Part shown: piece by piece, positions 56,273-59,476 of the stretch
How the letters are laid out: each line of letters begins with the position of its first letter
How positions within the stretch are numbered: position 1 is the first letter of the stretch
Assembly: GCA_001604215.1 (NCBI GenBank)
Contig: LVAX01000092.1
Span: 72,985 to 136,984, forward strand
DNA: 64,000 nucleotides
Source: Clostridiales bacterium Firm_18
Lineage (GTDB): Bacteria > Bacillota > Clostridia > Monoglobales > Firm-18
Reading direction: 5' to 3'
Program-made: the position numbers and the translations under genes
Notes under the pieces: generated by a model
What the model was told of the DNA's origin: nothing
The model's database searches: none
The model's input: only the letters and a program-made list of their open reading frames with translations

Positions 56273-57475
56273 TTACATGTAATCCATAGGATACATACTT
56301 CCGTCCAAGCCGTCTATAAGCTCTATACCGCAAACAATGCCGTCTTTTGTAAGGAAAACCATACTCTTTGTGCTTTCGTTTGTTGTATATGCATATGCTG
56401 CGTCATATTCGCCAAACCAAGCCTCATCATCATAATTGATACTATCGATTTTTTTAAATTCAGGCCGATGCGTCAAAAGGAATTCTTCAGTATCACCGAT
56501 TGTGATACCCGCCGCCGCATATTGATTCTGTTTGGCGCGAAGGGTTGTAACGAGATACACACCCTCGTAATTGTTTAAATAAGTTACTTGCAGCCCATCG
56601 CTCTCCACTACCGTTACCTGACCGAAGCTCTCGGCGCGGAAGCTTTTTCGGTCTTTCTCAATAAGGTTGCAGCCAAACGGGAAATCAACCGGATATACAT
56701 CCAGGCATATGCTGTGACCGCTGCCTGGTATAAATAAACTGAATAAACTGTTTTTATTGCTTGTTGCAAAATCCCCTAAGCAGGGTAAAAGCTCATAATT
56801 GCTAACAGCCTCTCCTGCAAGCAGCTTAGGCATATAGTCATGAATATTTCCTGACGATACGGCAAATAAGTCCGCACCTTTTATTGTAGCAGCAGTACCC
56901 CCTTTGTTTGCCCTTGCTGCCCGTTTAACGCTCTTTTTGATTTTATCATTATTTTCTGACATCATCAGATAATCATCGGCTAATTCTTTATCTCCGCCTT
57001 CCCATACCGGATATTGAATATCGGTTGGCATGCCGAAAACATAGGTATAGCCGCCTTCCTGCAAAGCAATGGTGCGATTTCCCGGATCTGTAATATCGTC
57101 GTGGGTAAGGTTGTCACCCTCCAGCATTTCTATATAAAACAACATTCCCGTGCCTTCTCCGTATTGCTGGCGGATAGCCTTATGATAGACATACACAATA
57201 TTATTGTATTTCTCTTCAATTTCATATTTATTTTTCCAGCTTTGCGGAAGCTCAAAAGAACAATCAAATGTCCTGCAAGTATATAAAATACTGTCATTGA
57301 AATTAAAACCAAATATTACACCTGCAATACCCATACCCAAAAGGAGTAGGATAAATGCAAAAACCCCAGCTTTCTTTGCTTTTGTATTCAAAATATTTTC
57401 AAACCTCCTTTTTGCGCTTTTCCCATTTTCGGAAAAAGATGTAGATAGTAACGGTGCTTTTATATAGCAACTCAT
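56273..57475 (-). CDS. Single-pass membrane protein, paralogous N-terminal module plus unique ectodomain
   Basis: 33 of the first 42 residues are identical to the upstream gene product. One TM segment (VFAFILLLLGMGIAGVIFG). AGGAGGGA SD. Confidence 0.6.
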   Translation of the reverse strand: MSCYIKAPLLSTSFSENGKSAKRRFENILNTKAKKAGVFAFILLLLGMGIAGVIFGFNFNDSILYTCRTFDCSFELPQSWKNKYEIEEKYNNIVYVYHKAIRQQYGEGTGMLFYIEMLEGDNLTHDDITDPGNRTIALQEGGYTYVFGMPTDIQYPVWEGGDKELADDYLMMSENNDKIKKSVKRAARANKGGTAATIKGADLFAVSSGNIHDYMPKLLAGEAVSNYELLPCLGDFATSNKNSLFSLFIPGSGHSICLDVYPVDFPFGCNLIEKDRKSFRAESFGQVTVVESDGLQVTYLNNYEGVYLVTTLRAKQNQYAAAGITIGDTEEFLLTHRPEFKKIDSINYDDEAWFGEYDAAYAYTTNESTKSMVFLTKDGIVCGIELIDGLDGSMYPMDYM

Positions 57476-57513
57476 CTTTATTCCCTCCTATTTTAAAGCT
57501 GATAAAACACATT

Positions 57514-58929
57514 TTAATATAGTCTCTGTGGCATGCCTTTCAAATATATAATCTCACCGTTTTTTATTTCAATAACGGTTTCTTGAACTATCTTTTTGCT
57601 ATCAAATTCATATTTCTTATAGGTTACTATCCCATCTCCATTACCTTTATCCTCCCATTGTTTTTCGTATACATAACGCATACCGTTTTCTACTTTTTCT
57701 TGTGTTCCAATCCAATATGGGTATTCGGCAAAACTGCTGAGTAGACTATTTGATGCCTCAACATTCATATTAGGTAATTTATGTTCAAAGTCGGCATAAC
57801 TTCCTATCTCCGCTCTTCGACCAATTGATTCTAAATAAGCCTTAGCATATGCGCTCTCCTGTTTTTTACATTCTTCATAATCTTCTCTATTCGCCGATAA
57901 TGCTCTGTCCCAGTACTTCTCCGGAAACATTTCCTTAATAGACGGCGTATAGTCACTTCCATCCCTTGCAGGCTTATATTCTATTAAAGTATACCTATCA
58001 CTGATGTCAACCTCAAAAGTAATTCGAGTAGGGATTATACCACTGCCGGATATCTTTATAAAATTACCGTTTTGAAAACCATACTCCCCATAAGTAGCAA
58101 GCACATAAGCTTCAATAAGCTTTTTTTCATCATTTTCGCCTTTATCCGAAGTCCCTAAAATAATATGCCCCTCGGCGACACATTCTCCTTTTTCGTAACC
58201 ATTTGAGTTACTAATTAAATTTGCGTCAGATACGGCACGGTCAATATTATTTGTGGCATTTTTCATAGATATAGCACTAAAGAGTGTTTTAAAATTTTCA
58301 AAATCTGTGCTGTATTCTCTCAAGGGTTTATCAAAAACATTGTCAAAATCCTCTCTTAAATATGTATAGCTATACATTGCACCTTTATACTTAATTTCAT
58401 CTTTAATATTTATGGTTATACTATCTACATTGTCAATTAAGCAAAACATAAGTATAGCATTTTTATAGAAACCATCGGATTTCACTGTACCATTAATTAC
58501 TGCCTTATCATAATCATCAATAATGTAGTACAATGTAACTCCATAAGGTTCACTATCTGTATGAAGTTCAATCTTTTCAACCTTAACACCCTCTGCAAAA
58601 GGCAAAAGCCTCACTATTTTAGAAACGCCTGAATTATTGCCAACATATTTTATTTTGCTGTTGTATAACTCCTTTATCTGTTTTTCTATGTTTCCTGACA
58701 TAAAAACAGAAGTAGGACCGTCACTGCCTTCAATAATACCAATATTGCTGCTGCTATTACAAGCAACTAATGCGCCAACAACTAAAATAGTGCATACTGC
58801 AATTATAAATGCAATCACACCTGTTTTCTTTGCTTTGGTATTCAGTATGTTCTCAAATCTTTTCTTTGCCCTTTTCCCGCTCTCGGAAAAGCTTGTGGAT
58901 AGTGCCGGCGGATTTATATATTTACTCAT
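57514..58929 (-). CDS. Single-pass membrane protein with DUF4825-like ectodomain
   Basis: The RFENILNTKAKKTGVIAFII juxtamembrane motif resembles the segment before the last TM of clostridial BlaR1/M56 proteins. ELYNSKIKYVGNNSGVSKIVRLLPF...EPYGVTLYY resembles DUF4825. Confidence 0.6.
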   Translation of the reverse strand: MSKYINPPALSTSFSESGKRAKKRFENILNTKAKKTGVIAFIIAVCTILVVGALVACNSSSNIGIIEGSDGPTSVFMSGNIEKQIKELYNSKIKYVGNNSGVSKIVRLLPFAEGVKVEKIELHTDSEPYGVTLYYIIDDYDKAVINGTVKSDGFYKNAILMFCLIDNVDSITINIKDEIKYKGAMYSYTYLREDFDNVFDKPLREYSTDFENFKTLFSAISMKNATNNIDRAVSDANLISNSNGYEKGECVAEGHIILGTSDKGENDEKKLIEAYVLATYGEYGFQNGNFIKISGSGIIPTRITFEVDISDRYTLIEYKPARDGSDYTPSIKEMFPEKYWDRALSANREDYEECKKQESAYAKAYLESIGRRAEIGSYADFEHKLPNMNVEASNSLLSSFAEYPYWIGTQEKVENGMRYVYEKQWEDKGNGDGIVTYKKYEFDSKKIVQETVIEIKNGEIIYLKGMPQRLY

Positions 58930-59038
58930 TTTCTCTACCCCCGTTTAAAGATATTTTGTTTAAAATCGGTGAAATAATAAGCAGCAATAAAATAACGGCC
59001 GACATAGAAAGAGAAATCATGAATATATTGTTTAGCAT
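58922..59038 (-). CDS. 38-aa hydrophobic mini-ORF resembling the first TM helix of BlaR1/M56 proteins
   Basis: MLNNIFMISLSMSAVILLLLIISPILNKISLNGGRENE. It starts right after the BlaI stop (TAAATG) and overlaps the next ATG. It is below the ORF-track size cut-off and was translated by hand. Confidence 0.4.
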   Translation of the reverse strand: MLNNIFMISLSMSAVILLLLIISPILNKISLNGGRENE

Positions 59039-59407
59039 TTACTCGGCCTCCTCTATAAATCTTTTAAGCTCCTTCAAATCATCCTTTGAAATACTTTTGC
59101 CGTCATAAAGGGATGCCACAAGACTTGTAAGGGAATTGTTATGGATTTTTTGAAAAAAAGATTTACTTTCTTTCTGCAAATATTCCTCTTTACCTACAAG
59201 TGGCTTGTAAACATTAAATCTACCCTCTTTGTGGCACTTTAAAAAACCACGGTCACACAAGCGAGTAAGAAAATTAAGTACAGTCGTTTTTTGCCAAGTC
59301 TTATTAAGTTTTTCCATTATATAATCGGATGTAACCTTCTCATCCGCATCCCAGATAATCATCATAATTTCAAGCTCGCTGTCGGGAAGCTTTTTTATGT
59401 TAGGCAT
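59039..59407 (-). CDS. BlaI/MecI/CopY family transcriptional repressor
   Basis: LPDSELEIMMIIWD...TTVLNFLTRLCDRGFL winged-helix region, 122 aa. AAGGAGAG SD. Confidence 0.85.
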   Translation of the reverse strand: MPNIKKLPDSELEIMMIIWDADEKVTSDYIMEKLNKTWQKTTVLNFLTRLCDRGFLKCHKEGRFNVYKPLVGKEEYLQKESKSFFQKIHNNSLTSLVASLYDGKSISKDDLKELKRFIEEAE

Positions 59408-59422
59408 TTATATCTCTCCTTG

Positions 59423-59476
59423 TTTTGCAATTGTCGAATATATTCATATTTTACAACTGCAAAACGTGTTTGTCAA
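59423..59476 (-). promoter_or_regulatory. Promoter with flanking inverted-repeat operator upstream of the BlaI-family gene
   Basis: On the minus strand: TTGACA (59476-59471), a 17-nt spacer, then TAAAAT (59453-59448). Inverted repeat TTTTGCAATTGT (59423-59434) / ACAACTGCAAAA (59453-59464), 11 of 12 positions complementary. Confidence 0.6.

Follow-up and report, generated by a model that had tools for sequence, protein, structure and literature searches.

BlaR1/MecR1 signalling underlies inducible β-lactam resistance, and debate continues both over the role of BlaR1 autocleavage and over how its sensor and protease halves communicate. The locus described here, on the minus strand of a 64-kb window (the whole stretch of DNA that was analysed), has a BlaI-family repressor gene at the head of an operon that encodes no protease. 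The first-pass annotation had read the locus as a BlaI/MecI repressor followed by three genes, and had offered two explanations, decay of a BlaR1 and a system of modular sensors. All four ORFs are indeed present on the minus strand, namely, blaI (59039..59407), a 38-codon ORF (58922..59038), and genes for proteins of 471 aa (57514..58929) and 400 aa (56273..57475). As in the BlaR1/BlaI and MecR1/MecI systems of Staphylococcus aureus and Bacillus licheniformis, whose repressors are of the same family, blaI comes first and the next gene abuts it, the TAA stop of blaI directly adjoining the ATG of the 38-codon ORF. Reading of the DNA bore out the Shine-Dalgarno sequences noted earlier ahead of the three genes after blaI (GAGGAGG, GGGGGT, and AGGAGGG, in gene order). 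The 38-codon ORF and the 471-aa gene had been thought to be coupled by overlapping stop and start codons; the two ORFs do overlap, by 8 nt (ATGAGTAA), but they have no stop/start codon in common.

Transcription of the operon is predicted to start from a promoter at 59448..59476 on the minus strand (TTGACA, 17-nt spacer, TAAAAT; 11/12 positions matched), which is the best promoter-like site within 55000-60700 and whose region is 83% identical to that upstream of blaI in L001, a related locus. An Rfam scan of 54900-60800 returned tRNA only, and no terminator was found in the stretch that separates the 400-aa gene from its downstream neighbour, where the fold was no better than that of shuffled sequences (z = 0.89). 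A promoter-like sequence (TTGCTT-17-TATAAT) lies ahead of the downstream HTH gene.

The 122-aa product of blaI is a winged-helix repressor of the BlaI/MecI family. It matches Pfam PF03965 (Penicillinase_R) over aa 9-120 (E = 1.5e-30; 106.4 bits, cutoff 22.6) and the MecI structure 1okr with an E value of 1e-12. A CopY-type metal repressor was rejected, as the TIGR02698 score of 77.5 bits fell below the cutoff of 121.95 and the C terminus (...KELKRFIEEAE) has no Cys. In the 1okr alignment, Ser99|Leu100 (SLVAS|LYDG) falls on the MecI cleavage site Asn101|Phe102, with Ser-Leu in place of the Asn-Phe of MecI/BlaI; we note that Ser at P1 and a hydrophobic P1′ resemble the S|F of the module described below. 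An inverted repeat read from the sequence (59422..59465, minus strand) overlaps the −10 element. Its arms, GTTTTGCAGTTGT (59465-59453) and ACAATTGCAAAAC (59434-59422), are complementary at 12/13 positions and lie 18 nt apart. The left arm includes TTGCAGTTGTAA, which is similar to the BlaI/MecI box, and the pattern TTRCANNTGYAA is matched exactly at 59451-59462; we presume this repeat to be the BlaI operator. Over the rest of the window, the pattern TTRCANNTGYAA showed no enrichment (20 matches versus 12.3 expected) and is not informative as a BlaI regulon search, the sole convincing site in the window being the operon's own promoter.

We then compared the two large proteins, referred to below as sensor 1 (471 aa) and sensor 2 (400 aa). 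By BLASTP, they are alike only in residues 1-63 (36/63, E = 2e-18), and 33 of their first 42 residues are identical, the same count as reported in the first-pass annotation; the next-best match outside this module has an E value of 0.16. The modules (aa 1-60) lie at 58750..58929 in sensor 1 (module profile, E = 2.5e-33) and at 57296..57475 in sensor 2 (E = 1.4e-28), both on the minus strand, and in both proteins the only TM-like segment spans roughly aa 33-60. Because the two modules are only 75.8% identical in DNA over 128 nt, recent gene conversion between them was rejected, and the module is conserved at the protein level.

The first-pass annotation had likened this module to the segment ahead of the last TM of M56 proteins. 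Alignment confirmed the likeness and sharpened it: in both sensors, the module is the homologue of the BlaR1 autocleavage loop, helix α9, and the last TM (TM4). In S. aureus BlaR1, the loop comprises residues 271-289, P4-P1′ is LSHS|F, and Arg294′ lies on the swapped α9′ (PMC9834060). The window modules were placed on this structure via P0002, a fused M56 protein whose C-terminal 450 aa are 75% identical to sensor 1 and which aligns with 8exp_A (phmmer, E = 1.9e-10) such that ILSTGFSE...KKRFDNIL lies on ILSHSFNG...KRRLINIK, residues 279-299. The LSTS|F of the module (LSTSF at 58902-58888 in sensor 1 and at 57448-57434 in sensor 2) aligns with LSHS|F (Ser283|Phe284; P4-P1′, Leu280-Phe284), and Arg24 (58860-58858 in sensor 1) aligns with Arg294 on α9. 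The F284A mutant chain 8exs differs exactly at the aligned F. A module-only profile had its top PDB match at BlaR1 276-318 in the same register (E = 0.49), and L10, S11, T12, F14, S15, R24, F25, N27, and I28 are invariant in 16 homologues. Both window sensors share with BlaR1 the loop, the α9 Arg, and TM4, followed by an extracellular domain.

In contrast to BlaR1, the ectodomains of the window sensors are not penicillin-binding (transpeptidase) domains, and PF00905 matched neither sensor. As the first-pass annotation had proposed, the two ectodomains are unrelated to each other and one is DUF4825-like: sensor 1 carries a DUF4825 domain (PF16107, aa 88-188, nt 58668-58366 on the minus strand, E = 1.6e-23; 83 bits, cutoff 22.7) followed by an unnamed, conserved C-terminal domain, and sensor 2 carries an unnamed pair that matched no Pfam or NCBIfam family. 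The first ectodomain of sensor 2 (approximately aa 60-185) is also found fused to M56 in P0118, P0119, P0130, P0150, and P0154. AF2 models were confident for the sensor 1 ectodomains and reached a pLDDT of ∼90 for aa 60-185 of sensor 2, and a Foldseek search of the PDB with these ectodomains had no match at E ≤ 1e-3 and only weak NTF2-like and DUF4309/YjgB-like sub-domain resemblances. Stand-alone homologues of sensor 1 are 44-48% identical to it. We note that one source names the 471-aa protein "BlaR1" despite its having no protease.

The protease was sought in all six frames of 56201-59500, where HExxH is absent, and with the PF05569 (Peptidase_M56) profile, which matched no ORF of the operon; among the Pfam profiles for M56 and DUF4825, only the latter had a match, in sensor 1. 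The absence of an HExxH protease domain claimed earlier was thus upheld. What is left of the M56 gene is the 38-codon ORF (the stub), which aligns with just the first 28 positions of an M56 profile that we built (E = 2.4e-6). These 28 codons (58955..59038, minus strand) correspond to TM1 and are identical at 26/28 positions to the N terminus of the intact M56 protein P0118 and at 22/28 to that of P0002, in agreement with the earlier suggestion that the ORF resembles the first M56 TM. DNA homology of the stub to L001 and L084 ends at 58955/58951. Along L001, homology extends over the blaI promoter, blaI, and the 28 codons (83%), is broken by a gap, and restarts at LSTSF (79%), 731 nt of L001 being replaced in the window by 51 nt. 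The deletion junction lies at 58955/58954 and has the heptamer TTTAAAC on either side. The protease gene has thus lost ∼0.7 kb, including HExxH, through an internal in-frame deletion that left the 28 N-terminal codons and a short tail (ISLNGGRENE plus stop; 58922..58954, minus strand), which carries the Shine-Dalgarno sequence of the next gene and the 8-nt overlap. This tail is probably the original 3′ terminus of an M56 gene of the split type, although the homology over its 10 residues is weak. The junction geometry in L010/L011 is the same, with purine-rich last codons that carry the Shine-Dalgarno sequence and an 8-nt overlap (ATGGCTGA versus ATGAGTAA here), and the M56 gene tails of L004, L022, L029, and L063 are similar.

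According to the first-pass annotation, its reading would fall if close relatives carried an intact single BlaR1 gene at this position and simple frameshifts or deletions accounted for the locus. This is so only in part: L001, 75-83% identical to the window, has one intact fused gene for the 717-aa P0002. This relative would suit an error of sequencing or assembly, or a fused BlaR1 gene broken by a simple frameshift. We nevertheless reject both, with next to no doubt, since the same stub is present in 10 contigs assembled independently in different projects, the 731 nt are physically missing, and HExxH occurs in no frame. Moreover, sensor 1 begins with M..YI.PP, an N-terminal motif that is specific to stand-alone forms and absent from fused ones; the ancestor of the window was of the split type rather than a single gene that became frameshifted. 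When metagenomes were scanned for closely related loci that still have the whole protease, only one identical stub-bearing contig and one distant match were recovered, and no close copy was present among GTDB representatives (best, 46%).

The split type is represented by at least 15 related loci in which BlaR1 is naturally divided into an M56-only gene and one or more separate sensor genes beside blaI. The order BlaI, M56-only protease, sensor(s) was seen in L003, L004, L005/6, L010-L013, L018-L022, L024, L029, and L063. The M56-only proteases are ∼256-293 aa long, have an intact HExxH, and end where the autocleavage loop begins; the sensors start with M..(Y/F)(I/L)KPP.LSTSFSE, each from its own ATG and Shine-Dalgarno sequence. 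Unlike in BlaR1, the halves are separate genes. The split falls ∼10-13 residues before the equivalent of the scissile bond, and a single protease may have several alternative sensors: loci have one to four sensors, with four in L021 and two each in L004, L018, L019, and L022. That the module exists as a stand-alone family in other genomes, as the first-pass annotation had wondered, is also evident from a library of 1.84 billion proteins, in which 685 clusters match it; among the best 150 of these, 100 are stand-alone and 48 are M56-fused. Both window sensors fit the split type: each has a start codon of its own, carries the N-terminal motif, and has a lone TM ahead of the ectodomain. Between them and blaI, the window has the stub instead of an intact M56-only gene. 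A literature search found no paper on split BlaR1, multi-sensor arrays, or protease-less loci, nor on DUF4825 as a term, and as far as that search goes the two-gene version of BlaR1/BlaI is previously undescribed.

We further examined all 10 independent contigs read that encode an identical BlaI, drawn from NCBI, JGI, ENA, and Logan samples. These are 99.8-100% identical to the window; blaI has no sequence variants in them, and the stub is present in 10/10. Sensor 1 is disrupted by two independent events in 4/10 contigs together, E118* in two and a truncation at 57782 (codon ∼383) in two others. Sensor 2 is intact in every contig covering its gene, with five synonymous and two nonsynonymous variants (4:2 if an adjacent pair is counted as one event). 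This ratio hints at continuing purifying selection, although some of the variants are clustered and may be recombination imports. In this population, then, the stub is fixed and sensor 1 is already being lost.

The state of sensor 2 bears on whether the locus is still functional. On this reading, another part of the genome would supply an M56 protease, of either the split or the full-length type, with which the sensors pair in trans and which also cleaves BlaI, so that the local loss is tolerated. Both sensors keep a highly conserved module, including the cleavage-site motif and Arg24, at a DNA identity of only 76%, and synonymous variants outnumber nonsynonymous ones in the intact sensor 2. 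Other genomes offer parallels: L007/L008 and L025 are orphan sensor pairs, intact but lacking a nearby blaI or M56, and because such pairs exist, sensors may work with a protease encoded elsewhere. Extra stand-alone sensors also accompany full-length, fused BlaR1-type genes in L084 and L014, and several M56/BlaI pairs are common in Clostridia, with seven BlaR-like proteins in Clostridioides difficile R20291. However, a profile search of the 64-kb window gave no M56 match besides the stub, and at least sensor 1 is dispensable, since it was inactivated twice independently in 4/10 contigs. Modules also come in lineage-specific variants (e.g., L018-L022 have LSMNFSENK), a sign that each may be co-adapted with its cognate protease; module identity within a locus was 0.65 versus 0.51 between loci, a difference that is confounded by phylogeny and only suggestive of co-adaptation. 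On balance, we regard a locus still served in trans as possible but rather unlikely.

Taken together, these data favour the reading that the BlaR1/BlaI proteolytic switch has a split form with multiple sensors and that this locus is a degenerate example of it; we assign this reading a probability of roughly 0.6. Each of the two earlier alternatives was half right: the relatives are modular, with separate protease and sensors, and the locus itself has decayed, as seen in the stub and the null alleles. An intact operon of this kind, as seen in the relatives, encodes BlaI, an M56-only subunit of ∼260-290 aa (TM1-3 plus an HExxH gluzincin domain), and one to four sensor subunits, each consisting of an autocleavage-loop equivalent (M..(Y/F)(I/L)KPP.LSTS|FSE), an α9 equivalent carrying the arginine by which the S. 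aureus BlaR1 active site is completed, a TM4 equivalent, and a variable ectodomain. By analogy with the S. aureus structure, the N-terminal tail and helix of the sensor may dock on the protease subunit, where the loop would act as a pseudo-substrate in the active site. When the ectodomain receives a signal, the equilibrium would shift, leading to cleavage of BlaI (in the window, probably at Ser99|Leu100) and derepression of the operon; with several sensors, one protease and one repressor could answer several signals. S. aureus BlaR1 self-cleaves at the loop, its two fragments stay associated, and α9 acts in trans in a domain-swapped dimer (PMC9834060; cryo-EM 8EXP-8EXT). Because the fragments stay together and α9 acts in trans there, a two-gene BlaR1 is plausible. 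On this preferred reading, the window locus, which lacks a protease gene, would be unable to cleave its own repressor; BlaI would hold its own promoter permanently repressed, and both sensor genes would be orphaned.

Signalling without proteolysis, e.g., by sequestration of BlaI at the membrane, or an unrelated envelope function with an only historical link to BlaI, would agree with an operon that encodes no protease and with the well-folded ectodomains in the AF2 models. Against this, every conserved module residue maps to BlaR1 protease-interaction elements (the P4-P1′ strand and Arg294), almost all relatives keep the M56 gene in the operon, and our literature search found no precedent. We found nothing in support of the non-proteolytic mechanism raised earlier and consider it very improbable.

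More tentatively, and at somewhat less than even odds, the stand-alone "BlaR1 C-terminal halves" may constitute a large and so far unrecognised family of exchangeable sensor subunits whose N-terminal loop/α9 module plugs into a separate M56 protease, as a genetically "pre-cleaved" BlaR1. One protease/repressor pair could then integrate several extracellular signals, ectodomains would be shuffled between fused and free forms by recombination at the module, and the surviving sensors here would still work with a protease encoded elsewhere.

CenR/CenI of C. difficile and the M56+DUF4825 proteins are likewise BlaIR-family systems of Clostridia with non-β-lactam ectodomains; they are single polypeptides, unlike the split relatives of the window. 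M56 followed by DUF4825 is one of nine common architectures (Kurtz et al. 2026, bioRxiv 10.64898/2026.04.08.717257) and is exactly that of P0002. Stand-alone sensor halves were invisible to that survey because it began from PF05569 proteins. BlaR (Rv1845c)/BlaI of Mycobacterium tuberculosis and M. abscessus pairs an M56 protease without a sensor domain with a nearby BlaI, as in the M56-only genes here. Homology in the module probably does not go beyond the family level, and we know of no separately encoded sensor halves for BlaR (Rv1845c).

The split family, with its gene boundary at the autocleavage loop and up to four sensor halves per protease, is directly accessible to experiment, as each half can be produced and mutated by itself and the two then combined. 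Many BlaIR-type sensors go unannotated, since surveys of domain architecture take M56 as their starting point. For the genome of the window, the operon is a protease-less remnant, and its BlaI is therefore probably a non-inducible repressor.

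The operon lies on the minus strand and comprises four closely packed ORFs downstream of the blaI promoter, a strong sigma-70-type sequence (TTGACA-17-TAAAAT, 59476-59448) that is overlapped by a 13-nt inverted repeat (59465-59453 and 59434-59422), both read from the sequence. The first ORF encodes BlaI (122 aa, 59407-59039; Pfam Penicillinase_R, 1.5e-30) and is followed by a 38-aa ORF, here called the stub, without a Pfam family (59038-58922), a 471-aa ORF with DUF4825 at aa 88-188 (58929-57514; Pfam, 1.6e-23), and a 400-aa ORF without a Pfam family (57475-56273). Pfam gave no Peptidase_M56 match in any of the four ORFs, an NCBIfam scan of them added nothing beyond the Pfam assignments, and HExxH was absent from all six frames of 56201-59500. 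The 471-aa and 400-aa proteins each have one TM-like segment at ~aa 33-60, and their similarity is confined to residues 1-63 (36/63 identical; 33/42 over the first 42), the best local match beyond these residues having an E of 0.16. AF2 modeled both ectodomains confidently, but neither model had a significant structural neighbor. These data confirmed the first-pass annotation of a protease-less blaI operon with two membrane proteins that share an N-terminal module, and the SDs, together with the 8 nt shared by the stub and the 471-aa gene, matched its description when read from the DNA.

P0002 (717 aa), the full-length protein most closely related to the 471-aa protein (75% identical over 97% of the query), has an N-terminal Peptidase_M56 domain followed by DUF4825, and it aligns with Staphylococcus aureus BlaR1 (8exp_A) with an E of 1.9e-10. 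This alignment places ILSTGFSESGEKAKKRFDNIL of P0002 opposite ILSHSFNGKKSLLKRRLINIK of BlaR1 (residues 279-299), such that the F of LST(S/G)F corresponds to Phe284, the position altered in the F284A chains 8exs/8ext. In the cryo-EM structure of BlaR1, the autocleavage loop spans residues 271-289, P4-P1' (Leu280-Ser281-His282-Ser283|Phe284) forms a beta-strand within the active site, and Arg294 on the domain-swapped helix alpha9' makes a salt bridge with Asp246 and so completes the partner's active site (PMC9834060). Across 16 homologues of the 471-aa protein, L10, S11, T12, F14, S15, R24, F25, N27, and I28 are invariant; F14 is the equivalent of Phe284 and R24 that of Arg294. When the 62-residue module was used by itself as a profile, its top PDB match was BlaR1 276-318 in the same register, with an E of only 0.49, which is supporting evidence and not proof. 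Taken together, the P0002-BlaR1 alignment, the invariant residues, and the register of the module profile show, at the level of sequence, that the module corresponds to the BlaR1 autocleavage loop, helix alpha9, and TM4; the juxtamembrane module that had been likened to the M56 segment preceding the last TM helix could thus be assigned by comparison of P0002 with 8exp_A.

Profiles of the module, of the M56 part, and of BlaI were used to scan 72 loci and the window in six-frame translation. Stand-alone homologues (44-48% identical, full length) occur in the gene order blaI, M56-only gene, sensor gene, and the M56-only genes of these loci encode 256-293 aa with HExxH intact. The arrangement of blaI with separate protease and sensor genes was found in L003, L004, L005/6, L010-L013, L018-L022, L024, L029, and L063, and fused M56-sensor genes in L001/L002, L014, and more distant loci. 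The M56-only genes stop at the equivalent of BlaR1 ~272-289, where the loop starts, some with a degenerate vestige of the loop at their end (…SLSVNLSKNNEE, …SLSTYLSGGSNGK). The sensor genes begin 9-13 residues ahead of the scissile-bond equivalent. Their opening motif, M..(Y/F)(I/L)KPP, is missing in fused proteins, and their SD lies inside the final codons of the protease gene, the two genes often overlapping by a few nucleotides. We considered whether the split might be an artifact of gene calling, and this was excluded by the end of the M56-only genes at the loop, the sensor-specific start motif, and the position of the SD. In L018-L022 and L004, the 3' end of many M56-only genes encodes a degenerate cleavage-loop motif (NLSVSLSKN…, SLSTYLSGG…) with Leu replacing Phe at P1', so that protease and sensor each carry a loop-like sequence; the tail on the protease may be a vestige of the origin of the split or a second pseudo-substrate.

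The number and placement of sensors vary. L004 has two sensors downstream of the protease; L018, L019, and L022 have one on each side of it; and L021 has three upstream and one downstream. In L014 and L084, a stand-alone sensor lies beside a full-length fused gene. A search of 1.84 billion representative proteins with the module profile (E ≤ 1e-3) returned 685 clusters, and the best 150 of these comprised 100 stand-alone, 48 M56-fused, and 2 unclear cases. Among close relatives, M56 is fused to DUF4825 in P0002 and to a 400-aa-type ectodomain, followed by a free DUF4825 sensor, in P0118, and both sensors are free in the window. Because the same parts are combined differently, this points to shuffling at the module.

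What remains of the protease gene in the window is the stub, which matches positions 1-28 of the M56 profile (E 2.4e-6) and whose N terminus is identical to P0118 at 26/28 and to P0002 at 22/28 residues. The DNA of L001 and the window is 83% identical from the blaI promoter through stub codon 28, and the match restarts at LSTSF of the 471-aa gene (79% onward); between these points, L001 has 731 nt, the entire protease core, versus only 51 nt in the window. L084 shows the same break. These comparisons show that the protease gene has been deleted in this locus. The 51-nt segment encodes the last ten residues of the stub and its stop, the SD, and a split-type sensor N terminus; the overlap here (ATGAGTAA) and that of the intact split loci L010/L011 (ATGGCTGA) share one geometry, and TTTAAAC is present on each side of the junction. 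From the break in L001, the content of the 51 nt, and this geometry, we infer that a split-type M56 gene lost an internal segment in frame and kept both of its ends, the homology at the 3' end being short.

An identical BlaI is present on at least 23 contigs, of which we read 10, from NCBI, JGI, ENA, and Logan samples. The stub is the same in all 10, and their identity to the window is 99.8-100%. The stub allele is thus real and seems to be fixed in the contigs examined. In L079 and L081, the 471-aa gene bears a nonsense allele, E118*; in L009 and L078, it is cut at codon ~383 (window 57782), where it joins a short hairpin repeat. Such null and truncated alleles argue that selection on the DUF4825 sensor is relaxed, as would be expected once the partner protease was lost. 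Among the contigs read, blaI has zero variants and the stub two non-synonymous ones; the 400-aa gene is intact in all, with 5 synonymous and 2 non-synonymous changes, and this sensor may still be constrained.

The flanks of the operon were also compared. At the left edge of the unit common to all contigs is a pair of 25-nt hairpin repeats, AGACAA(G/T)GGGACGGTTCT(A/G)TTGTCT (60534-60591, minus; 0 expected by chance), beyond which the contigs diverge upstream into transposase/PGA_cap, Y1 transposase/fucosidase, HsdR/HNH, or an HTH gene. This repeat also occurs in L009 (2284-2336 and 5089-5213), L078 (5076-5131), and L075 (1352-1421), and in the first two of these it forms the junction at which the 471-aa gene is truncated; it resembles a species-specific palindromic element that marks rearrangement breakpoints. 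Always on the upstream side of the operon is a 136-aa ORF without a family match (59904-60314, minus), followed by a terminator-like hairpin (59854-59875) that contains the most widely shared SNP among the contigs examined (59862 T/G). Directly downstream, two genes are kept alongside the operon in all contigs (55174-56188, minus): one encodes 193 aa, with HTH_3 at the N terminus and a desulfoferrodoxin-like region at the C terminus, and the other is arr (NAD+-rifampin ADP-ribosyltransferase; NF033144, 2.2e-67). The interval between the 400-aa gene and this pair yielded no terminator, but the HTH gene is preceded by a promoter-like TTGCTT-17-TATAAT; both genes are frameshifted in L075. A 65-nt stretch just 3' of the 400-aa gene (56207-56271) is 80% identical to L001 7470-7534, which adjoins the blaI promoter region upstream in that otherwise non-syntenic locus, and could be a shared mobile-unit edge or a conserved promoter. 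A tRNA-Arg(CCT) (55017-55093, plus) separates sigE/sigG-like sporulation sigma-factor genes (53367-54902, plus) from the minus-strand block of arr, sensors, blaI, an HNH protein, and type I restriction HsdR. The tRNA, a turn in cumulative GC skew around 54000-56000, a fall in GC content to 35-39%, and the variable flanks suggest a tRNA-adjacent variable island.

In intact systems, the N-terminal module of the sensor would dock onto the M56-only subunit, provide the alpha9 arginine, and fill the active site as a pseudo-substrate; ectodomain signals would release the cleavage of BlaI, probably at Ser99|Leu100, which aligns with MecI Asn101|Phe102. The main alternative for the window is that its sensors pair in trans with a protease encoded elsewhere in the genome. 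The intact 400-aa sensor keeps this pairing plausible, as do orphan sensor pairs in other genomes, such as those of L007/L008 with neither blaI nor M56 nearby; within the 64-kb window, there are no other M56 matches. Under our preferred reading, the operon would be locked off and decaying because BlaI could no longer be cleaved by a cognate protease.

The window locus is a degenerate member of a known signaling kind. The most pertinent publication, an architecture survey begun from the M56 domain (Kurtz et al. 2026 preprint), includes M56+DUF4825 among the common single-chain forms, and we found no paper describing a split form of BlaR1. The notable finding is the family behind this locus, which gene order and alignments show to be a widespread, multi-sensor BlaR1 architecture that is genetically split, with the gene boundary at the autocleavage loop and exchangeable sensor halves.
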